Assembly: GCA_034780895.1 (NCBI GenBank)
Contig: JAUZTB010000084.1
Coordinates: 5,106,715-5,163,918 of the forward strand
From: Rhynchobatus australiae
Taxonomy: Eukaryota
DNA: 57,204 nt
Direction: 5' to 3'
This document shows, piece by piece, positions 7,401 through 51,196 of the stretch (position 1 is its first letter; every line of letters starts with the position of its first letter). The notes below the pieces were generated by a model. The model did not search any database. It saw only the letters and a program-made list of their open reading frames with translations, and had not been told where the DNA came from. The position numbers were made by a program, and so were the translations under genes.

Positions 7401-8269
7401 AGTGACGGTCGCACCATTCTGACTTACAGTTACCCAACGGTCTCTGAAGGTTGGTTAACTAAACCAGAGGGACTTTGGATGGGAGGGAGTAAAAGGATTC
7501 AGCTTTGATAGTAAGGAGGGGTTGGTGGAATGGGTAGGCTGTCAGTTCCTTGGAGTTGCCTGACTGTTGATCAATTAAAGAGCTTGAATCCAGAAAGCAT
7601 AAAGCTGAGCTGAGGCTGGCTTTATGTGAAGTGCCAGTAGGGGATCCTGTTCATAGCTTCTATTCAGTTTGGCAGCCCCTTTTGTCCAATGCGAGGAGCT
7701 GTCAAAGCATCCAGGGTTCTTTGCCTCGACAGGTGCAGGCTTCGAATTCCATGAGGCATTGGAGTTAGAGAGCGCATTCCTATGCTGCAGGCGCACCCAG
7801 ACTCCGCACCAACCCCTTCCCCCTTGCACTCAATGCAGCAATTCACGCTCTCTGCTGGGTAACAGGCAGCTGTCGGTTGGAACAGAAACGCGCTGATTAT
7901 CCCCAGAAAGCAGGCCACGTTGCTAGGAGAATATTCATCCCCCAACCCTGCCCCCCCCCACCAACATCTTGCACCCACTTAATGTAAAGCAGCATTTTCT
8001 TAAAAGAGGCAAAGTGGGACTGTGAGACACAGTAGACTCCTACTGCGTGAGTCTCAGAAAAGAAACTCGCCCCAACCCACCACCACCCATTTTGAACCCA
8101 GGCCATACCAACAGCATTTCTGTAAGAAATAAATGTGGATGGAAAATTCTGACTTTCTTTTCTGATTGTATCAAATAAACAATTTCACTTTTTATCTCAA
8201 CTCCTTCTGCATCCCAGTGAGGAGATGCCAGCAACAGAGAGAGATTGTGGTATATCAGAATGTCACAGT

Positions 8270-8640
8270 TATCGGAGTAAAGCTAAGTAGGGGTTATCGG
8301 AGTGTCACAGTGAGGGACGTGGGGAGTATTGGTGTGTCACACTGAGGGATGTGGGGTGTATCTGAGTGTCAGCGAGGGACGCGGGGTGTGTCGGTGTGTC
8401 ACAACGAGGGACGCGGTGTGTGTCGGTGTGTCACGGCAAGGGACGCGGGGTGTGTCAGAGTGTCACGGTGAGGGACGCGGGGTGTGTCGGAGAGGGATGC
8501 GGGGTGTGTCAGAGTGTCACGGTGAGGGACGAGGGGTGTGTCGGTATGTCACGGTGAAGGACCTGGGTTGGGGCCACAGCAAGGGTTGTGGAACGTATCT
8601 GAGTGTGCCACTGTAAGGGCGTGTCATTGTTGTCGTGACT
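8270..8640 (+). repeat. GC/CpG-rich minisatellite, unit about 29-30 bp
   Basis: Tandem gtgtcacggtgagggacgcggggtgtgtcg(g/a) units, decaying at both ends. Confidence 0.9.
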
Positions 8641-9295
8641 GTCTGAGGTATATCGAAGAGTTGCATTGAGAGCTGTGGGGTCTAACAATGTGACTGTGAT
8701 GGATGCTAAGTTTGTCAGAGCTTTATAGTGAGATATGCAGTAGGTACTTGAGAGCTAAATGTGAGGTATCTCAGCGTTGCTCACGGGTATGGAGTATTTA
8801 GTGTTATAGTATGTTTGTGCGGTGTTACAGTATCAGTGTCTGCAAATGATATCAGAATGTTGAATGTTCTGATGGTACTTTGCATGAAGTAACATGTACA
8901 TTTACTATTCTCAGCCTTCAGTTAGTGCGACCAGTTTTTTTTATAATCAGAGCTCAGGCTGACAGTGACAGGGGAGTGGTAGGCCGTTGCCCACTGGGAT
9001 GTGACCCTTGCCGTCTGCTGATAACATTTTGCAATGTACCATCTGGCGGGGCTAGATTTGAAACCTGCTCCCAGGGGTGATGGGACTGTTGAGTATTGTT
9101 GAAACATTCTCTTCCCCCTACCCCTCCCCACCCCCCCCACCCCTTGTCAAGTCCAATCGTTAAACCTAGAGGCATGTTCAAGGGCTGCTTTTATCTCCAT
9201 ATATTCTCAATGCCTCCCTCTCTCTCATTTCACACAGTGGTCTATCTTGCACAGGCAGCCATTGCCATAATTGCTTGGCTTATAATATCTCTCAT

Positions 9296-11669: not shown

Positions 11670-12400
11670 AGTTATAGAGTCGTACAGCAGAGAAACAGGC
11701 CCANNNNNNNNNNNNNNNNNNNNNNNNNNNNNNNNNNNNNNNNNNNNNNNNNNNNNNNNNNNNNNNNNNNNNNNNNNNNNNNNNNNNNNNNNNNNNNNNN
11801 NNNGGCCCACCATGCCCTTGCTGCCTGTTGTACCTATCTACACTAATTCCATTTACCTGCATTAGATCCAAAGTCTTCTACGCCTTGATGATTTAAGTCC
11901 TTATCTACATGCTTAAATGCCATGAGTATCTGCCTCCACCATGTCTTCAGGCAGCACATTCCAGACTCCATCCACCCTCTATGTGAAATAAATTCCCCCT
12001 CAGATCCCCTCTGAACCTCCTACCTCTAATCTTAAACCTATGTTCTCTTGTCCTAGATACTCCCACAATGGAGGAAAAAAGATGTTTACTATCTATCCTC
12101 CTCATTTTATAGACCTCTATCAGGTCACCTTTCAGACTCCTTTCCAGGGAAAACAAACCTAGCCTATCCAGTCTCTCCTTGTAACTGTAATGCTCCATCC
12201 TAGTGGACCTCCTCTGCACCAATTCAAACAACATCCCAGTGAACCTTCTCTATACCTCCCCAGCACAATCACGTCCTTCCTATATTGTTGCGGCCTAACC
12301 ATTGTTTTATAAAGCTGATGTCCCAACACATAAGTTCTATGCAATGGCCAATGAAGGCAAGCATACTGACCAATATCCGCACATATGCACTTGTCCACAC
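11670..12400 (-). mobile_element. CR1 LINE 3' fragment (contains a gap)
   Basis: ORF 11947-12234 reads SYKERLDRLGLFSLERSLKGDLIEVYKM, the CR1 ORF2 C-terminus; LYKTMVRPQ lies upstream. Confidence 0.9.
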
Positions 12401-19874: not shown

Positions 19875-19880
19875 TTTATT
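19875..19880 (-). terminator. Candidate poly(A) signal (AATAAA) of the INSM-family gene
   Basis: tttatt on the + strand, at the end of an AT-rich 3'UTR-like stretch (19880-20216) containing overlapping ATTTA elements near 20126-20140. Confidence 0.6.
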
Positions 19881-20451
19881 TAAAATATCTCAGAAACAAA
19901 CAACATCTAAATGAAAGCTGCCACAAGTGACAAATGCTCCTTCGCAACAGTAAGAGAATATAATTGTATTTTCAGGCACGTGTCAGTTTTAGTTGTTGAG
20001 AAAAATACAGAGTTCAGCCGTACAATCACCTTACCCATCCCCAGCATGATATCCAAAAAAAAGTCTATAAACACTTGCAGTAGTTCTTGTACAAAAAGTT
20101 CTATATATATAATTAACCAAAAAATATAAATAAATAATATAATTTATACTTGTCTGTAACCATTACAGTATTGCAAAGAAACTGAGGCTGATGAATCCTT
20201 TTTTTTTCTCCTCTCGNNNNNNNNNNNNNNNNNNNNNNNNNNNNNNNNNNNNNNNNNNNNNNNNNNNNNNNNNNNNNNNNNNNNNNNNNNNNNNNNNNNN
20301 NNNNNNNNNNNNNNNNNNNNNNNNNNNNNNNNNNNNNNNNNNNNNNNNNNNNNNNNNNNNNNNNNNNNNNNNNNNNNNNNNNNNNNNNNNNNNNNNNNNN
20401 NNNNNNNNNNNNNNNNNNNNNNNNNNNNNNNNNNNNNNNNNNNNNNNNNNN

Positions 20452-21543
20452 TGGGCAAGGGATGTAGGACGTCTCGGGGCCTGGTTGGACCGGGACGTCC
20501 TCAGCCGCAGCAAAAGTGAGCCGAAGTCCATGTTGAGGGGGGGCAGAAGAGATGACACCTGGTTTCTCGAGCTCAGCTGTGGGTGGTTGGAGGAACTGCT
20601 GACTTCCAGGCAAGAGCACCGGAGGCCGGTGAGTGGCCATGTGTTTCCGAAGGTAGGCTTGCCGCCGGAACTTCTTCCCACAGAGCGGGCAGTCAAACAT
20701 GTCATCTTCGGGGCTGGGATAATCGCAGGATTGAGGTGAGGAATTGCAGCTCTCCCGCTGGCTCTCGGCTTTGGTTTTACTCTTGCTGCTGTCTTTGGCC
20801 ACCTCCTGGCCCTGGAGGCTTCCAGGGTTCTTAGGCTTGTGCCAGCGGCAATGAGACGCTAGGTTTGCAGGGCAGCTAAACACCTTGTCACACTCAGTGC
20901 AGCGGTACTCCACTCGGACGATCCTGGAACACCTGTGCTGAGCCAGCGACAGGGCGTCTGCATACTCCTCCTTGCACAGTTGGCAGATGAACTCTCCCAG
21001 AGGCTGCCCAGAAACCTTCGGTTGCGGATAGTCCATCAGCTCTTTGGTGATTCTCAGCCCCAGGACCGGTGAAGTGGTCACCTCATCTCGATAGGTCTTC
21101 CTCTCCGTCCTGGGCCTTTTCCCGTGGGCTTTGGCTTTGGCCGCTGGCAGCTGCCTCTTGACTGCTTGGATAGGGGTGCAGTTCGAACCCATCTCCACCT
21201 CCTCATCCGACACAGAGGCCACGAAAACTGCCCGTCCCAGCGAGGATGCCAGGGTCGACGGGCTGGGGAAAGACTCTGCCAAGACTGGCGAGCTGGAGTT
21301 GACTGGCCTGCCTGGGGAGCCGGGCTGTCCACTCTCTGGTCTGTCGGGGCTGCGGGACGGCGCACAGGGGGAATCGGGCATCCCGTAGCAGGCAGACCTG
21401 GTGGCAGCTGAGGAGGCGGCTGCAGGAGGGCCCCACAAAGAGGGTGATGCTTCCGTGAAGCTCTGTCCTTCTTCGACGCTGCGCACCCTGTAGGAGACAG
21501 GGGCGGCTCTGTTAGTCCTCTTCACCAGGAACCCTCGGGGCAT
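20452..21543 (-). CDS. INSM-family (insulinoma-associated) SNAG + C2H2 zinc-finger transcription factor, single exon as far as visible; 3' end in gap 20217-20451; paralogue identity unresolved
   Basis: N-terminal SNAG MPRGFLVKR. INSM motifs PVSYRVR, SSPVLAESFP and DEVTTSPVLGL. ZF1/2 GEFICQLCKEEYAD..LAQHRCSRIVRVEYRCTECDKVFSCPANLASHCRWHKP and ZF3 FDCPLCGKKFRRQAYLRKHMATH. The 364 readable codons end at IPCP, the start of the next finger. Confidence 0.96.
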
Positions 21544-21719
21544 CTCGGCTCAGCAAGTTCTCTGACAGGTGTGTCCTGTCGAGCAGAGAGGAAGAGAGAG
21601 AAACCCCCCCAACAGTCTGCAAGCAAGCTCCTTGATCCTAAAGGCTGCAAGGACGAGGGAAGAGAGTGCACTAAGCAGCAGTCTCCCCCACTTAGAACTG
21701 ATCGGTTGCAGCACTGCTC

Positions 21720-21960
21720 GGGCTATTTAAAGGCTACACAATCCCATTGTCTGGTCCATCTCAAGCAGATGGCTTGGGATGAAGAACCAATCAGACAAAG
21801 AGCGTAATCTGATCCAAGAGGGACTGACGAGTCTCCCAGGAGGCGCCAGATGTACCTGTTCTGACGCGTGTTTGCTCCCCATTATGTAAATGACTATAAG
21901 GGTGCCACACGTCCGGCCTGCTCCTTTTGTCCTGCTCCTATTCATAACACACGTGCCGGG
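21720..21960 (-). promoter_or_regulatory. Proximal promoter of the INSM-family gene
   Basis: TATA-like TTTAAATA (21724-21731, minus) about 180 bp upstream of the ATG. CAGATG/CATCTG E-boxes at 21766-21771 and 21847-21852, CCAAT at 21787-21791, ATGTAAAT at 21884-21891, CACGTG at 21950-21955. CpG-rich and repeat-free. Confidence 0.65.
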
Positions 21961-22180
21961 GCTTTGTCCTAATTCAATAGAGGCAGCGAAATAAAGAGAG
22001 AGCGAGAAGGGGCCTCCTCCTGGGGGGGAGGGGGGGGTGCATAGAGAGAGGTCCCTTAATGTCTCCAAGCGTGCTTGATCCATCTTGGCCGGCTCTTTTG
22101 TTTGCAGCAGATCAGACTTGAGACCTCGGGCCGTCTGATTCACACAAAGCCGAGTGCAGTGGAGGGGGGTGGGGGGGAGC

Positions 22181-22207
22181 AGAGAGAGAGAGAGAGAGAG
22201 AGAGAGA
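22181..22207 (+). repeat. (AG)n microsatellite heading a purine-rich tract that runs to about 22870
   Basis: Direct observation. Confidence 0.9.
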
Positions 22208-24349
22208 AATGTGAGGAGAGGGGGAAGAGATGCTAAATAAAGTGAGGAAAGAGATGGTGAAAACGAGTGAAGTTGACCAAGGAAAGAAAGAGAAAGAAAA
22301 TGGACAGATGAAATGAGGATTTTGTATAAACCATCAAACATACAGGTATTTGAAGCACTAATGGAAAACTAAAGCTCCCTAATAACGGCAGAACAGCCCA
22401 TAGACCATAAAACAGCTTAATGACCAATACATAACTTTCATTGATGTCTCACTGTGATACTGCTGGTAAACTTGCAGCAAATCACGTAGTTCAACCATTT
22501 GAGTATACAATTATTACTTCTGTACTGCATGAGACACAGCAAGAGAAGGAGAGCAAGACCGACAGAAAGAGACAGAGGAAAGAAAGATTGGGAGGGGAAA
22601 AAGAAACAGACTGACAAAGGGAGTGAAGAATTAGTGGAGCAACAACCTGACAGAGTAAAAGAGAGAGTGAGAGGCACAGACTAGGAACGAGAGAGGTAGA
22701 GTCAAAAACTGACAGGAAAGACAAGTATGCAAGAAGGAAATAGCTATACAGAGAGTGTGAGAGCATGAGAGGGAAAGGAAAAGGATGGAAAGAAAGTGGA
22801 AAAGAAAGCAATAACAAGCAAAGACTAGCAAATACACAGTGAGAGAGGAACAAATGAAAAAATATTTTTTATTATCAATGTAAGGGCCTTGAAATGATAG
22901 TATATTTGTGAAAAGGTTATGCTTACTATATGTGTCCTTTGCAATAAGTGAAACTAAAATCATATCTTGAAATTATTATTGAAGAAATTAGCAGGAGACA
23001 CTGCACATTTTTCAGAGATCTCAACCTGCCTTCTTAAAGAGACTGTTAATGTTGTGTTAATGTGTTCACTTTACCAACAAACATACTGCATGTCATAGAA
23101 ATGCACATGCACTTACTCTGTGGCAATAACTTAACAGTGGCTATATTTTTATATTCAATGTTATTCTGCTGGGCAAGTGTTAGAAAATTAATTCTTGTTA
23201 AAAACCATAAACAGCACCTTCTTGAAGTTTGAACAGATACCAAAAAAGAACTTGCATAAATGTTTCATTTCATTGCTGCCTCTGAGTGTAACGAAGCTAC
23301 ATACAAATAACATCAGATATTTTTTGTTTGGGAATCAAATACTGACAAAATCAGGAATGAATTTGTGGAATTCTGGGCTTGACATGATATTGAATGTTTC
23401 TTCCACTGCCTCTGTGTCCATTTCTATGACCAGGAGTCTTCGCCACTCTCTGCAGATCCTTTCTCTTACTTCCAGAATTCCCAAACCACCTGGGCCCTTC
23501 TCTCTGGCCTCTTACCCTCTCTAGATCTATTCATTGCTAGCAACCAGTGGGACATTGCCTTGATTTTCCTTCACTCATTCTAACCTACCCCTTCTGAACT
23601 TGCAGCACTTCATTCACTAAGAACCAATCCTAACATTGTCATCAAACCNNNNNNNNNNNNNNNNNNNNNNNNNNNNNNNNNNNNNNNNNNNNNNNNNNNN
23701 NNNNNNNNNNNNNNNNNNNNNNNNNNNNNNNNNNNNNNNNNNNNNNNNGCAAATACACAGTGAGAGAGGAAAAAATGAAAAAATATTTTTTTAAATGCCA
23801 GCAAAGATATTTGTCAAACTTTGGATAGGTTTTTAAAAACCAATTTAAATTAATCACTAGTGTCCCGTTAAAATTCATAACTCATATTGAACTGTGTCCC
23901 AAATAAATGAGTAATTAGCCTTTCCATTTATCATTTCTATTTGGCATCTACTTTGTGGGATGCATCAGCAATAAGGAACGGACTTTCAGTTTCCCCATGT
24001 AAACCTTTCCAACTTTGTCCCTCGGTTCATCCTGCTCACTCACTTCCACACCCTTTCTGTGGATTTTCATCCCTGGACCAGCCAGTGTCCCTCATCCCAT
24101 CAAGGATGCAAATGTGTAGACAATTTGTGGGTTGAGCGAGAATCTTTTTCAAAACTCTGGTATGGCTGCTGATGTTCAAACCATCAGTGTCTGCTTTCAC
24201 AGACTGAATTGCATAAATTAGATCAGGTCCTAAGCCCAAAAACGTAAATGAAAAATGTTTTTATATTTGGATTGAAATAACTTGTATTTCATGATTGCAG
24301 CCTGACCCAGCTCCCTACACAGGTAAATCAACAGTGCTTTAAGGTCCTA

Positions 24350-24520
24350 GCAAACTCCTGCAAACAGCACAAACATAATGATCACCTGATAAATATCGGG
24401 CCAAGATCCAGGGGAACTTGCCTGGTCTTTCACATAGTGGCCATGGGATCCCTGTGAGACAGCAGCTAACAGGTGTCAATTTAAGGTCACGGCTTAAAGA
24501 TGGCACCTCTAACAGTGCAG
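24350..24520 (-). mobile_element. DeuSINE-type fragment
   Basis: gataaatatcgggccaagatccaggggaac..atagtggccatgggatc..aaagatggcacctctaacagtgcagcac. Confidence 0.65.
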
Positions 24521-24690
24521 CACAGCCTCCCTCCTCGTCAGTGCGGCACTGTCCTGGTACAGCCTCCCTCACCGTCTGTGCGGAACTGCCCCGGTTACAG
24601 CCCCCCCTCTCCGTCAGTGTGTGAGACGTTGCCCCGGTACAGCCTCGACACAGCCCCCCCCACTCCTCCCTCCACTCTGTCAGTGCGGCC
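24520..24690 (+). repeat. Minisatellite, unit about 38-42 bp, running into a gap
   Basis: Tandem acagcctccctc(c/a)ccgtc(a/t)gtg(c/t)g..tgcc(c)cggt units. Confidence 0.8.
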
Positions 24691-37560: not shown

Positions 37561-39567
37561 GTTCTGACATTTTGATGGTTAGGCATAGGACACAGCACTG
37601 ATGAACTGCTACAGTCATGTTCTGGGGCTTGACTGATTTACCCCCACAGCTATCTTCCTTTATGCGAGGTCTGACTCCTACCATTGGAGTGTTATCCCCT
37701 GCACATCCATTGACTTCTGCTTTAGTAAGGCTCTTTGGCTCCCAAAAGCTGGTGGAGGACATAGATCAACTGCGCAATGTCATCCAAGTCGGTCAGCATC
37801 CTTCGGGCCAATCATCAGATGTTGCCACCAAACTCTGTGCATCTTTGATGGACAGGAGAGAGCCCAGTAATAGGATCAAACCAGCTACCCAGCAAATGGA
37901 AGGGTGAGGAGCAGTCCCATATCATGCAGAATCTGGATCTCTGTACAACTGCCATAGGGTCTGGTCTTCAACCCAGAATGGGATTCTGTAAAGCACCTTG
38001 CTCTCAAGATGCTCAGTCTTAGACCCCCTGCTTCTTGATTGACACCTTTAATTATTCCTGACAGAAGAGACAGCTATTCCTCTATCGCTTTGAGGAGAGG
38101 TGGCTCTTGCTTTCTTCCTCAGTCAGCCCAGAACAAACAAAACAAATCCCAAATTCTCTCGACCTCCAGCAGCCAGTTGGTAACATGCCAGTGTTTGACT
38201 CCACCCATGTGCACAGTGGATGAGCTCCACTCATATCAGGTGCTGGTTTGACATAGCACCAGTTACACAGAGCCCAAGCTGCACACCTATAAAATGGAAA
38301 GACTCGTACCACTGGAGAAGACGAACTGACCACAGGGTCTAAGCACCTAGCCTTGGTTTAAATAGTAATAACAAAAATGTCAGCACGAGGAGAAATGAAT
38401 GGCAGGTGGGAAAAGGAATTTCTTCTTTCAGAAGGGCATGAATCTTTGGGTGGCAGAGTCATTGAATGTATTCAAGGCATAGATTGGCAGAGATTTAAAA
38501 TACAAGGAAGTCAAGGGACACGGGCAGAGAGTGAAAGTGTCAGGACCAAGACTGAATCAGCCTTGTTCGTAATGAATAGTTAAGCAAGCTCATAGGACTC
38601 CTGTGTCCTGTGCAGGAAGACGGTGGCTATAAATGATGTTGCCAGAGTTCTTGTGGACGATTGTAGCTGGGCAAGCATCTTCTCCCAGGTCTGCTGCAAC
38701 CTGCCCAAGCTGTTCCAAAATTCATGGTATAAAGAAAAACTTTCTTCACCCAGTAACCTGTGCCAGACAATAGAGGTGTGGCAAGATGGAAAAAGAATCA
38801 TCACAATCCTCCTCATAGAGCCTGACAGCCTCATTCCGAGTATGTTGTAGTGTCTTCTTCCTCCCCAAACAGCTTTTGTAACCAGCTTCCTACATATCAT
38901 TATAAAGTGACCTCCTCCTCTAACTTTGATACAGCTCTTCCTCTCTTTCCCATCAGCAAAAGTAACAAATCCCAGCAATTTTTTCTTCTCCAGCTCTCAC
39001 ACACTATGCACTACAACTGCTCCACATTAACTGGGAGTGTCTAATCTCCAGTCAATCAGCCCAGGCTGAGCCCTGGAAACATGTGATGGGATAGTGCAGA
39101 TGAAGCTTTATTTTGTATCTAGCCTGTTTTTTTCCCCCTCTTGCTTTTTATCATGCAGTGCAGTGCCTTGGACATGTCTTAAATCTTAGAATTTGACTTC
39201 CCCACATGATCATGCAAATGCTGTTTGAGGATTACTCAACTGGGGAAGAGCAGCTACGTCATAGACTCTAGACTGGCAGGAGTGGACCTCTTTCAGGAGC
39301 TACCCTCAAGCACTGAGCTTTGGGAGGGATGTACACAGAGCTGAGAGAGAAGAGAATCAGCCAGGTTAACCCTCTCAGTCAGTGGGGCAATAATGTTGCA
39401 ACAAGATCACACTCAGCCTGTGCTCTCCCTGCCCTAGGTATGTTTACGGAACTCATTGTGATTCAATCCTGCACCTCTGTGGATAAAACAAAATAACAAG
39501 AATATTATAAAGAAAGCAAGTTGACAATGTTCTTTATTTGAACTATNNNNNNNNNNNNNNNNNNNNN

Positions 39568-39581
39568 CGCTCTTCCGATCT
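39568..39581 (+). other. Illumina adapter remnant at a contig edge (artefact)
   Basis: cgctcttccgatct directly after an N run; identical to the 3' end of Illumina adapter/sequencing primers. Confidence 0.85.
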
Positions 39582-40482
39582 TTCCTAAATCTATTGCTGA
39601 GCAGAACTAATGAGAGGTATCCAGGAGCCGAGAAGGAACCACCCCACCCCACCCCACCCGCCCCCCCAAAGTACCTCTGGCTGGCATCCTCCCACACTCA
39701 GTACACAAAACCAGTTGTGCAAGAACATTTTCATTTCCTCCTGCCATAACAAGTCTCATGCCTTCCATGCACCCACTAATCATCATCAACACATTCAGCC
39801 CCAGCCATGCACCATCTCAACAACCACTTCACCCCCACACTTCCCAAGTGTGCAGGGAGAACTAAAAAGCATTGGCCTTTGACCAATTCAAACTGGGTTT
39901 TCCCAGCGGTAGCTTGAGAATCAATGTATTTTTATAATTATTCAATATGTCAGTTAATTAAAGGACGTAGCTGCCAAGGAATTAAATCTTTCCATTGATC
40001 GAACCAGAGGAGGCCATTCTGCCCCTTTGGTTTGTTCTGCCATTTGGTTCCATTTAACTCCATCTTCCCTCTACATGCCATACTATACACACGAGGTAGA
40101 CAGGTTTTGATGAAGAGGGCAGGGGGTGACTAATTCAGAGCATAAACAAGGATGCGGCACAGTTGGGACAAATAACCATAAACATTGTTATTGTGCATAT
40201 AAAAGGACTCCAAAACAGGACTGGTAAATGGCAAAGAGCAGCAATTAAAATCATTGAAACACGCAATGTCAGTGTAATGTCGCCAAGAGCATTTCCTAAG
40301 CCATAGACAGATGATATGGCAAGGGACAAAAAGAAAAGGAGAAAAAAATTCTGACACTGAAGCATGCCAGAATTGGAACATCCTAAAACAAAGTGAATTC
40401 ACGCCAGTTATAATTGGCAACCTTTTAACACCATTGAGACACAGGTCTCATTCTGTTAGAGTAACTCTTCCACCACCCTCCC

Positions 40483-40644
40483 CTAATTATGCAAGTTTGA
40501 AGGCTTTGGGTGGGCATTATGGATCAGTAATTCGGTTACTCTTAAGAGGTGGCACACCGTGGTCTGAGACTCCTGGTGCAGGCGCTGATTAGTCTGTCGT
40601 AGCTGCTCCACCTCACTCGCCAGCAGTGCTTTGTCTTCCTTCTC
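40483..40644 (-). CDS. SIPA1: SIPA1 last coding exon, coiled coil and stop
   Basis: Acceptor gggatag|GAG. EKEDKALLASEVEQLRQTNQRLHQESQTTVCHLLRVTELLIHNAHPKPSNLHN* resembles EKADRAALEEEVRSLRHNNRRLQAESES. TAG at 40485-40483. Confidence 0.9.
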   Translation of the reverse strand, partial: EKEDKALLASEVEQLRQTNQRLHQESQTTVCHLLRVTELLIHNAHPKPSNLHN

Positions 40645-41156: not shown

Positions 41157-41235
41157 CTTCCTTAGCTTCTCATTCAGCTGCTTGACGGTGGCTTCTAAAC
41201 GAAACACCTTTTCATTGAGACCTGTTGGAAAGGTG
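41157..41235 (-). CDS. SIPA1: SIPA1 penultimate exon, start of coiled coil (phase 2 to 0)
   Basis: Acceptor cactcag|C. TFPTGLNEKVFRLEATVKQLNEKLRK resembles GNLSEKVSHLESMLRKLQEDLQK. Donor AAG|gtgaga, 79 bp. Confidence 0.88.
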
Positions 41236-42255: not shown

Positions 42256-42313
42256 CTCTCTTCCCTCGGCTCAAGGGCACCGGCAGCCCTGGGTTCCTCC
42301 GTTGTCATCTCTT
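42256..42313 (-). CDS. SIPA1: SIPA1 short linker exon (phase 1 to 2)
   Basis: Polypyrimidine acceptor ttttgccag|AA and consensus donor AG|gtaagt. The 58 bp (EEMTTEEPRAAGALEPREE) exactly bridge the phases of the flanking exons. Confidence 0.75.
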
Positions 42314-43098: not shown

Positions 43099-43194
43099 CT
43101 TCCAAGGAGAGGGACTGTACAAGGTCTTCACAGTATGAAGCAATGTCTGCCAGGGACTGCCACTGAACGTTAGGGACATCAGATGTTATGATAT
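43099..43194 (-). CDS. SIPA1: SIPA1 exon (phase 1 to 1)
   Basis: Acceptor cgtttcag|AT. IITSDVPNVQWQSLADIASYCEDLVQSLSLE resembles human SIPA1 EWQAISEIASTCNTILESLSRE. Donor G|gtgaat, 96 bp. Confidence 0.85.
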
Positions 43195-43984
43195 CTGAAA
43201 CGAAAAGATAGGATAATGTAATATTCAGTAGACTAGGATGTCTGTCCATCGGAGGCGCATACACTACTGAAAAATTCCTTCCTCCTCACGCCCCTGGATA
43301 TAGTTCCAAATATGTCTGAGGCACTGTGAGGTTATACCACTGTTTCAAATATTGTTCCTTTACCAAAGTACTGAAGGAGGTTGCACATGGTACTCAAGCT
43401 AATAGAGTAACTAGTTCCAGGATTACTGGCCTCAACTGATGTAGGCAAGTAATTTGCCTGCCTTCATCACACACCTAACCACTGCCCTGCTACCTTCAAG
43501 GATCTGTACACATGCACTCTGAGATCCCTGGTTTCTTCACACCACTCAGTAATCGTGCAGCAGTCTGCTGGTAACAGAAGTACCAGAACTGCCATCTTAC
43601 CAGGACCAGTATCACAGACAACCCATCAGTAACATGTTGTCAGTTTTGGACACATCACACATATTTCCTGTCACACATATTCTTCCACTTCTCCCCACCA
43701 CCCAGTCAGACATTACCGTGCACTTTAGCACCACTTGGCACATTTTGGCTCGGACCAGCGAGTGAATAGATCAGTGAGGTATCATTCAGAAGGGCTTGTT
43801 GAGGGTCCAGGAGACCAGGATCACAGGTGCTTGGATTGCTGGGGCAACTCTCCTGAAGGGCCATCCCAGGGAAAGAGCGTTGAGGAGCAGCAACCTAGAT
43901 CAGGAACAGAAATGTGTACAGCCATCAGAGATACAGCCCTTGTGGCCTTCCATTTGTGGTGAATTGTTCTGGGTTTTTTGTAAT

Positions 43985-47944: not shown

Positions 47945-48153
47945 TTTGAAAACTGTCCGAAATCAGGGGCAGAAAATCGCCCTGTACATCACAGGGTAAG
48001 AACTCTGCCCTCAGCTTAGGTGAGTTACTGACCTGGGCATCGTTGGAATCGAAGTCCAGTCTTCCAGGAGACGGTGGGCACTGGGAGTTTACAGCCAAAA
48101 TGAGGTCAGGGGTTGATGTCTTTAGAGCCCTGGAGCAGGGGTCCCTCTCATTC
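47945..48153 (-). CDS. SIPA1: SIPA1 exon (phase 2 to 1; donor position uncertain)
   Basis: Acceptor ctgttcag|G. Encodes ..KTSTPDLILAV..SPKLRAEFLP..ISDSFQ, resembling TPDLLLA and PELRASFLP of human SIPA1. The weak donor A|gtagtt after 47945 is frame-compatible with the next exon; an alternative donor CAG|gtcagt lies after 48033. Confidence 0.7.
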
Positions 48154-49708: not shown

Positions 49709-49912
49709 CTTTGGCCTTGAGCCACTCTCATTTCCAGGGAGCAGCTCCGTACGGTGGGGCTCTGTGATCCTTGTGGACTGGTGCTCCTGGTCTCCTGGAG
49801 CGAGGACATCCTCAACAGGGACAGGCAGGGCGGCGCCAGCCCTGTATCTGGCACCCGGTCGCACTTGCGCTCAGTCTCCTCGATTGACTTTCTGTACAGC
49901 TCGGAGAAGCTC
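49709..49912 (-). CDS. SIPA1: SIPA1 exon following the PDZ (phase 2 to 2)
   Basis: Acceptor ttttgaag|G. Encodes SFSELYRKSIEETERK..., and SFSELY is the post-PDZ motif of SIPA1 as I recall it. Donor AG|gtattg, 204 bp, in frame with both neighbours. Confidence 0.85.
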
Positions 49913-50921: not shown

Positions 50922-51196
50922 ATTCTGGGCTTGCCCTTGCTGTCAGGGGGGATGATGGTTATCTTCACATTGTCGGCCTTCCTCAGGAGCTCTGCCCTCT
51001 CCTTGTACGACAGCACCACCACTGGCGTCTCGCAGATCCTGACCAGCCGGCTGAAGAGCTTCAGGCCCATCATTTGAGCGTAACCATTCTCCTCCACCTG
51101 GGTCACAATCCCTTCACCATTGGCTTGGAAACCCAGGTGATGGACACTGTTGCGCCGGAGGACGAGGTCTTCAGTCTCGCACCCAGTTGTCACAAT
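50922..51196 (-). CDS. SIPA1: SIPA1 exon encoding the PDZ domain (phase 0 to 2)
   Basis: IVTTGCETEDLVLRRNSVHHLGFQANGEGIVTQVE...SRLVRICE...LLRKADNVKITIIPPDSKGKPR matches the SIPA1/SIPA1L PDZ. Acceptor aaaacag|ATT, donor AT|gtaggt, 275 bp. Confidence 0.92.

Follow-up and report, generated by a model that had tools for sequence, protein, structure and literature searches.

Does the INSM-family gene that lies beside SIPA1 in a 57,204-nucleotide stretch of the Rhynchobatus australiae genome (the window) represent INSM1, INSM2 or a further member of the family? INSM1 has a central role in regulating the differentiation of neurons, hair cells and neuroendocrine cells, and the INSM family is handled as two genes in vertebrates; a third INSM is not known from mammals, where it would have been lost. 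A published table for human and mouse holds only Insm1 and Insm2, a published Insm phylogeny neither names a third gene nor includes cartilaginous fish, and our literature search found no publication naming one.

The INSM frame runs on the minus strand from an ATG at 21543 to 20452. This intronless coding exon (20452..21543) shows 364 codons without a stop before it enters an assembly gap (20217..20451, a run of N) that hides the final ~30 codons together with the stop codon, so that completeness of the frame is not visible in the window alone. It aligns in one block, at 97% identity, to residues 1-360 of Pristis P0002, an orthologue that is a complete protein of 390 aa. The 3' region is AT-rich and carries a candidate polyadenylation signal, AATAAA, at 19875..19880 on the minus strand. 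A GC- and CpG-rich island (20601..21700; GC 0.57-0.63, CpG o/e 0.50-0.57) covers the coding exon and its start and supplies six of the seven 500-base windows that pass GC>0.55 and o/e>0.5 in the whole window. E-boxes were not enriched upstream of the gene (4 found, mean 2.4; at least as many in 215 of 1000 shuffles).

The translation has the layout of the INSM family, which comprises INSM1, INSM2, Nerfin and EGL-46, and both motifs quoted from it in an earlier note were found there. A SNAG motif occupies residues 1-9 (21517..21543, minus strand, as are all the following features of the protein); it is identical in coelacanth, lungfish, shark and bird INSM1 rows and aligns to the INSM1 chain 3zms_C. 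Finger 1 is of the CCHC type (residues 185-205, 20929..20991) and is directly followed by the C2H2 finger 2 (residues 213-235, 20839..20907), then by a long linker and the C2H2 finger 3 (residues 283-305, 20629..20697). Every zinc ligand has its aligned counterpart in 8jpy_A and 3zms_C, and the DNA-contact residues of fingers 2 and 3 are retained, with an Arg-to-Cys change after the first His of finger 2. Fingers 2-3 are 83-96% identical to those of bichir, paddlefish, eel and tarpon, against 20-22% for the linker. Matches in the ESM Atlas carried family-level names only.

The earlier note placed the ATG about 18.9 kb downstream of the SIPA1 stop on the same strand, and the measured distance is 18,940 bases. 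The last SIPA1 coding exon (40483..40644, minus strand, TAG stop at 40485-40483) encodes a coiled coil; its 53 residues all recur unchanged at the C-terminus of Pristis P0122, and an AG precedes 40644. Further exons on that strand lie at 41157..41235 (boundaries placed by eye at AG/GT) and, from the Pristis comparison, at 42256..42310 (a short exon with a tandem acceptor), 43099..43194, 43717..43894, 48033..48153, 49709..49912 (after the PDZ domain) and 50922..51196 (the PDZ exon, also found with Pfam); exons upstream of it fall outside the window. The neighbour is of the SIPA1 type, with RapGAP, PDZ and a short tail without SPAR_C, and its closest bony-vertebrate relatives are SIPA1. Its best 120 matches are all 987-1603 aa long and without SPAR_C, and named SIPA1 proteins among them come from Latimeria, Rhinatrema, Pleurodeles, Ambystoma and Danio; a chimaera fragment, P0136, does show a SPAR_C match. 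NCBI differs from this assignment, since 11 of the 13 elasmobranch copies carry a full SIPA1L2-type name there; no SIPA1L protein was among the sequences that we compared. No RALGAPA exons were seen within the window. The interval between SIPA1 and INSM had been described as holding no recognisable gene, and this agrees with a search in which none of the 78 N-free stop-to-stop frames of at least 65 aa matched Pfam at E 0.001, which is weak evidence because the genuine PDZ exon reached only E 0.015. Rfam gave one weak 7SK match over the interval, and fragments in it that we judged by eye are presumably LINE-like.

To place the gene we relied on careful trees, since a first quick tree (75 rows) showed long-branch joins. 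These trees left out P0204, P0206 and P0208, and the 43-row tree was also built without the chimaera, P0148, P0152 and P0154. The window gene grouped with vertebrate INSM against the outgroup (support 100/98), whose rows were taken as invertebrate from their tree position. Within vertebrates, three clades were recovered in the 43-row tree: INSM1 (98/95), INSM2 (100/99) and a third clade (100/100; 100/99 once the chimaera was added in a second careful tree). The window gene nests in neither INSM1 nor INSM2, the latter being a clade of 10 rows whose identity is anchored only through a paddlefish peptide. AU tests likewise reject joining the elasmobranch genes to INSM1 (p 7.3e-6) or to INSM2 (p 5.5e-5). 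The third clade is not shark-specific: it includes sharks, rays, chimaera, coelacanth, newts, caecilians, bichirs, paddlefish, eels, tarpon, herrings, salmonids and catfish. Heterodontus, Latimeria, Polyodon, Megalops, Aldrovandia and Neoarius each possess a member together with a separate INSM1. As the third clade and the INSM1 clade each include cartilaginous and bony vertebrates, the duplication predates the split of sharks and bony fishes. All together, it is almost certain that the window gene beside SIPA1 is an ancient paralogue of its own.

Could it instead be INSM2 (or INSM1) itself, relocated beside SIPA1 and evolving fast? The whale-shark member is entered at NCBI as INSM2-like, and the sequences compared included no named INSM2 protein from sharks; the AU tests speak against such a relocation, as do the occurrence of all three INSM types in paddlefish and the separate alpha1 and alpha2 INSM genes of the bamboo shark in the listed part of PMC10972751, and we regard it as very improbable. 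Paddlefish Insm2 genes were already published, in the table of the Insm phylogeny paper. The peptides encoded by their primers are absent from the paddlefish third-clade member P0023, and one of them was found in P0142, in the INSM2 clade. The idea that the 'Insm2' of paddlefish and sterlet ampullary organs is the third gene was ruled out by these primer-encoded peptides; only the sterlet reverse-primer peptide was found in clade members, and it is short, unspecific and also present in INSM1 proteins. Nor does retention of the third gene track electroreception as a clean rule, as it is kept in eels, tarpon, herrings and salmonids, whose electroreception status is our assumption.

Linkage to SIPA1 was then compared between species. 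Of the 10 species for which both values were available, 7 have the third-clade gene and SIPA1 on the same contig; for INSM1-type genes the count is 0 of 13. Sharing was judged by eye from the equal size of the longest sequence carrying each gene. The three mismatches (Megalops cyprinoides, Coregonus clupeaformis and Pleurodeles) count against our main reading, but they might stem from additional duplications of fish genomes or from differing assemblies. In all five comparable elasmobranch assemblies the pair lies on small chromosomes, and in Synaphobranchus the locus tags are neighbours (SKAU_G00369360 for SIPA1, SKAU_G00369380 for INSM). A scaffolding mis-join might have been suspected from the six N gaps between the two genes in the window (a seventh lies just before the last SIPA1 exon), one of which (39547-39567) precedes a short remnant that we take to resemble an Illumina adapter. 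Because the same pairing recurs in the five elasmobranch assemblies and in the eel, a mis-join is hardly credible, and the flanking synteny is upheld in independent assemblies. The small chromosomes led us to consider linkage to the elasmobranch X, which was rejected: SIPA1 lies on a 179.7-Mb sequence in Narcine, not on the 103.2-Mb chr12 with the X block, and on 21.9 Mb in Mobula hypostoma, where X1 exceeds 28.9 Mb.

We take the human positions of the vps51 family and of SUPT5H to be 11q13 and 19q13. In the listed part of PMC10972751 (supplement file 6), the INSM and SIPA1L families are both on the ancestral linkage group CLGA1, with INSM2 and SIPA1L1 on alpha1 and INSM1 and SIPA1L2 on alpha2. 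The entries listed there place bamboo-shark INSM genes on chr10, chr9, chr45 and chr41, of which chr45 bears the vps51 family and chr41 SUPT5H; the bamboo shark may thus hold a fourth INSM copy. The INSM copies therefore occupy separate chromosomes that trace back to a single ancestral linkage group, although SIPA1 proper is absent from the family table in that part of the file, which makes its assignment to chr45 indirect. Five of six marker genes had no match among the same entries, and neither INSM nor SIPA1 entries were present in the three supplement files of PMC7269912 or in those of PMC8302630 (file 4 excepted). The tree, the linkage and the shared CLGA1 support the earlier proposal of a whole-genome-duplication copy beside SIPA1, and such an origin is very probable. 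An old single-gene duplicate or retrocopy, which landed by SIPA1 before the jawed-vertebrate radiation, would look the same in its intronless coding region, and the synteny rests on one neighbour, SIPA1. Nor is one sister relation clearly favoured: bootstraps gave the third clade with INSM2 in 626 of 1000 replicates, INSM1 with INSM2 in 358 and the third clade with INSM1 in 16, whereas the paralogon pairing, as we assume it, predicts the last of these, and this grouping withstands the AU test (p 0.134). Yet CLGA1 is common to the two families, and CLGA1 genes are present on each of the four chromosomes with a bamboo-shark INSM gene; as a random insertion seldom lands on a paralogous segment, we consider a retrocopy improbable.

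We therefore consider it likely that this SIPA1-linked gene, 'INSM3', arose in the early vertebrate genome duplications as a third INSM gene of jawed vertebrates. It would have been left on the SIPA1-bearing copy of the linkage group that also yielded the INSM1 and INSM2 regions, and would have kept its place next to SIPA1 from a time before the split of sharks and bony fishes. INSM3 and INSM1 (human 3zms_C, 8jpy_A, 8k81_A; fish and shark rows) have in common the SNAG, the CCHC finger 1, the DNA contacts of fingers 2-3, the segment before finger 1 and the intronless frame; they differ in clade and chromosome, with 40-47% overall identity. INSM2 (P0140, P0142, P0145, P0150 and others; Xenopus and paddlefish Insm2 in published tables) has the same family core and is the weakly favoured sister, but forms its own clade, and trout insm2 adjoins nfkbia, not SIPA1 (PMC10299181).

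INSM3 is reduced in structure, beyond mere divergence. Canonical INSM1 and INSM2 have five fingers, whereas there are at most four in the third clade and three in elasmobranchs: finger 4 is lost across the clade, and finger 5 is also decayed in elasmobranchs. For the window protein, whose C-terminus falls in the gap, this end was read from Pristis P0002. Not more than one intact finger follows finger 3 in all 43 clade proteins, against two in 74 of 77 INSM1 and 9 of 10 INSM2 proteins. Moreover, the excerpted text of PMC11880201 gives I268, L271, P279, F280 and A283 of INSM1 finger 1 as critical for TEAD and describes the interface as basically unchanged in evolution. The window protein keeps three of the five, with Ala and Leu at the positions of P279 and F280; Leu280 is present in 43/43 clade proteins (Phe in 76/77 INSM1 and 9/10 INSM2) and Ala279 in 11/11 elasmobranch members. 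Judged from these residues, the third clade is an exception to the conserved interface. TEAD coupling would probably be weakened or lost because of these substitutions, and we give reduced TEAD binding in elasmobranchs about an even chance. Phe to Leu is a conservative change, which counts against a loss, and the replacement residues of the P279/F280 mutants are unstated in the same excerpt. INSM1 segment 221-256 binds CTCF, FOXA2 and NEUROD1 according to that text; its equivalent here (residues ~142-176, 21016..21120) is 43-54% identical to 10 INSM1 rows, and its core hardly varies.

Such reduction might also mark a real paralogue in decay, relaxed, partly redundant, near loss and with little function. 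The long stem branch, the lost fingers 4 and 5, the altered TEAD residues, the patchy retention and the unsequenced 3' end of the window gene would fit, but the frames are open in 43 proteins across jawed vertebrates, conservation is focused on the SNAG and the fingers and the start is CpG-rich, so that decay is quite improbable. By analogy to INSM1, INSM3 would very likely act as a SNAG corepressor: an adaptor carried to chromatin by partner transcription factors, whose fingers 2-3 would grip DNA weakly and whose SNAG would recruit LSD1/RCOR/HDAC. It would probably act in differentiating neural, sensory or endocrine cells, and neural or endocrine expression appears rather probable. A bolder proposal, which we hold as speculative and on balance unlikely, is that sharks keep four INSM duplication copies (INSM1, INSM2, INSM3 and an INSM4 near SIPA1L3) and that elasmobranch INSM3 could be a separation-of-function, three-finger SNAG repressor, off TEAD, acting via NEUROD/FOXA/CTCF-type partners and specifying a cell type or state that INSM1 and INSM2 do not.

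That sharks retain ohnologues is in itself nothing unusual. FoxA4 is an example kept in fishes and amphibians and not known from mammals; INSM3 is likewise a retained, faster-evolving duplicate concealed by best-hit naming, and additionally has an altered domain set. As the earlier note had guessed, database names are of the INSM1-like kind (INSM1-like, 1a-like, 1b-like or 2-like). The third copy stands under names such as 'insm1a-like' in catshark, newt, paddlefish, eel, salmon and catfish, so that a paralogue may be mixed in or overlooked in their expression atlases, probes and knockdowns. The natural loss of fingers 4-5, together with the changed TEAD surface, lends itself readily to testing which module each INSM1 activity depends on.

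The INSM gene of the window is a real and conserved third paralogue of the INSM family, and its domain set is distinct; it is apparently unnamed so far, and very probably a genome-duplication copy. Its open frame starts at an ATG at 21543 on the minus strand, opens with a SNAG motif followed further on by Pfam C2H2 matches, and runs for 364 codons before entering a gap at 20451 (the window holds 13 N gaps). The encoded protein is 97% identical to that of Pristis pectinata, with an indel difference of four residues. A CpG-rich island covers the gene start; the sole other CpG-rich stretch results from a GC-rich tandem repeat of 32-base units at 8201-8700, and a second such repeat, of 37-base units, lies at 24522-24646. 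A non-repetitive stretch at 25040-25430, which precedes the INSM start by 3.5-3.9 kb, is a candidate enhancer by eye.

The earlier note had placed this ATG about 18.9 kb from the stop codon of SIPA1, and we measured 18,940 bases to the TAG. No Pfam match was obtained from 78 frames in the interval between the two genes or from 52 downstream frames, a test that is weak for short exons. The neighbouring SIPA1-family gene covers eight exons at 51196-40483 on the minus strand, matching residues ~811-1202 of its Pristis counterpart (P0122), with 53 of 53 residues identical in the final exon. Its PDZ domain (50922-51196) falls under the Pfam cut-off in elasmobranch SIPA1 (E 0.015), and most elasmobranch copies are labelled SIPA1L2-like by NCBI. 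The best 120 matches of the full-length Pristis protein measured 987-1603 amino acids (median 1258), and none of these 120 carried the SPAR_C family; the top non-elasmobranch matches included named SIPA1 proteins from coelacanth, caecilians, newt, axolotl and zebrafish. The search scored 8000 candidates, and no SIPA1L protein came up in it. Judged by ranking and architecture rather than by a tree, the neighbour is assigned to SIPA1.

A scaffolding mis-join had been raised in the earlier note as a possible source of the SIPA1-INSM pairing. We scored linkage as an identical longest-contig value for both proteins in the search tables. The third-clade gene and SIPA1 shared this value in 7 of 10 species: the sharks and rays Pristis (13,611,680), Heterodontus (27,526,183), Cetorhinus (24,015,347), Heptranchias (10,701,561) and Amblyraja (15,599,296), and the eels Anguilla anguilla (71,675,879) and Synaphobranchus (33,544,385), where SIPA1 and INSM bear the locus tags 369360 and 369380. 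Values were unequal in Megalops cyprinoides, Coregonus clupeaformis and Pleurodeles, and INSM1-type genes shared the value of SIPA1 in none of 13 species. The contrast between these two counts shows that the pairing is genuine and older than the split between sharks and bony fish; its recurrence across assemblies excludes a mis-join. At 39547-39581, a 21-base N run is followed by a remnant (at 39569) resembling Illumina adapter; it is a local assembly blemish only. A near-identical 43-base direct duplicate (22828-22870 and 23749-23791), one copy of which adjoins a 100-N gap, is possibly a local assembly overlap.

Best-BLAST sorting of the window protein and the best 120 of 1421 INSM matches against seed sets gave 43 third-group and 78 INSM1-type proteins. 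Among the matches listed, 29 third-group members were named: nine sharks and rays plus Callorhinchus; Latimeria, two newts, two caecilians, two bichirs and Polyodon; and, among teleosts, eels, tarpon, herrings, salmonids and catfish. Frogs, lungfish, gar, cypriniforms, spiny-rayed fish and amniotes were not found among the named third-group proteins within these best 120; all but 64 of 144 representatives were examined. Three divergent proteins (P0149, P0156 and P0158) nested within the teleost third-clade genes; they may be the second copies that the genome duplication of teleosts left behind.

A profile search among 50% representatives supplied the INSM2 and outgroup rows, which are unnamed. 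The INSM2 clade is anchored by P0142, as this protein contains a peptide that is encoded by a primer published for paddlefish Insm2. A careful tree of 43 rows recovered three starred clades: the third (support 100/100), INSM1 (98/95) and INSM2 (100/99). With the chimaera included, the third clade stood at 100/99 and its division into cartilaginous and bony members matched the species tree. Nesting within the INSM1 or INSM2 clade was rejected by the AU test when the elasmobranch members were held with INSM2 (p-AU 5.5e-5) or with INSM1 (p-AU 7.3e-6). As to sister pairs, bootstraps per 1000 were 626 for third and INSM2, 358 for INSM1 and INSM2, and 16 for third and INSM1, this last arrangement not being rejected (p 0.134). 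Three unnamed INSM proteins (P0148, P0152 and P0154) fell outside all three clades and may be jawless-fish genes or a fourth copy; P0148 was sister to the third clade at 81/86 and, like it, has Leu280 and lacks finger 4, and P0154 leaned toward INSM2 (75/38).

According to PMC11880201, INSM1 represses by recruiting LSD1, HDAC and RCOR via SNAG, binds CTCF, FOXA2 and NEUROD1 through residues 221-256, and contacts TEAD through finger 1 (I268, L271, P279, F280 and A283); fingers 2-3 bind DNA weakly and non-specifically, and fingers 4-5 hardly at all. Conservation of the third INSM protein is centred on functional modules. In the window protein SNAG is kept, fingers 2 and 3 have their DNA-contact residues, and the 221-256 segment is about half retained. 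Unlike INSM1, all 43 third-clade proteins have Leu in place of F280, and all lack finger 4. The 11 elasmobranch members all show Ala in place of P279 and an Arg to Cys change in finger 2, and none has an intact finger beyond finger 3. By its sequence, the third INSM protein would act as a SNAG corepressor tethered by partner factors, and its coupling to TEAD may be reduced.

In supplement file 6 of PMC10972751, the INSM (OG_7446) and SIPA1L (OG_6381) families are both assigned to the ancestral linkage group CLGA1, Xenopus insm2 and sipa1l1 to its segment alpha1, and insm1 and sipa1l2 to alpha2; the table, as available, lacks chicken INSM and gar insm2. For bamboo shark (code Chipun) the table lists four INSM genes, on chr10 (alpha1), chr9 (alpha2), and chr45 and chr41 (both without assignment). 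The chr45 model is Chipu0012926; the chr41 model, Chipu0013267 (chr41:5,019,437), lies 0.82 Mb from a gene adjoining the sipa1l3 rows, and the same table places SUPT5H on chr41 and the vps51 family on chr45. The gene 0.82 Mb away is probably SIPA1L3, and Chipu0013267 is a candidate INSM4 that could be a fragment or pseudogene. The human positions of the chr41 and chr45 markers are 19q13 and 11q13, respectively, and by these positions chr45 would be a SIPA1-type and chr41 a SIPA1L3-type segment. With four bamboo-shark INSM genes and chr45 so read, the data set of PMC10972751, as far as its table goes, already held the third gene, unnamed, and possibly the fourth too.

In the full-text literature, subscription journals and gene-tree databases aside, we found no publication that names a third INSM of vertebrates; the sole 'insm3' match was an unrelated microbiology paper. 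The main text of PMC10972751 does not mention Insm, nor those of PMC11057056 and PMC11979771 INSM. The Insm tree of a lateral-line study, judged by its accession list, samples just Insm1 and Insm2, and no cartilaginous fish is among its species (10.1101/2023.04.14.536701 / PMC10982350).

Elsewhere in the window, a weak full-length 7SK match at 39153-39419 on the minus strand (43.2 bits, gathering score 35) is probably a decayed 7SK-derived copy. Broken frames at 30793-31475, 32930-33286, 35652-35981 and 11950-12249 resemble, by eye, the 3' end of LINE reverse transcriptases; they had no Pfam match. A dispersed repeat of ~240 bases recurs at ~17000, ~29650 and ~49200.
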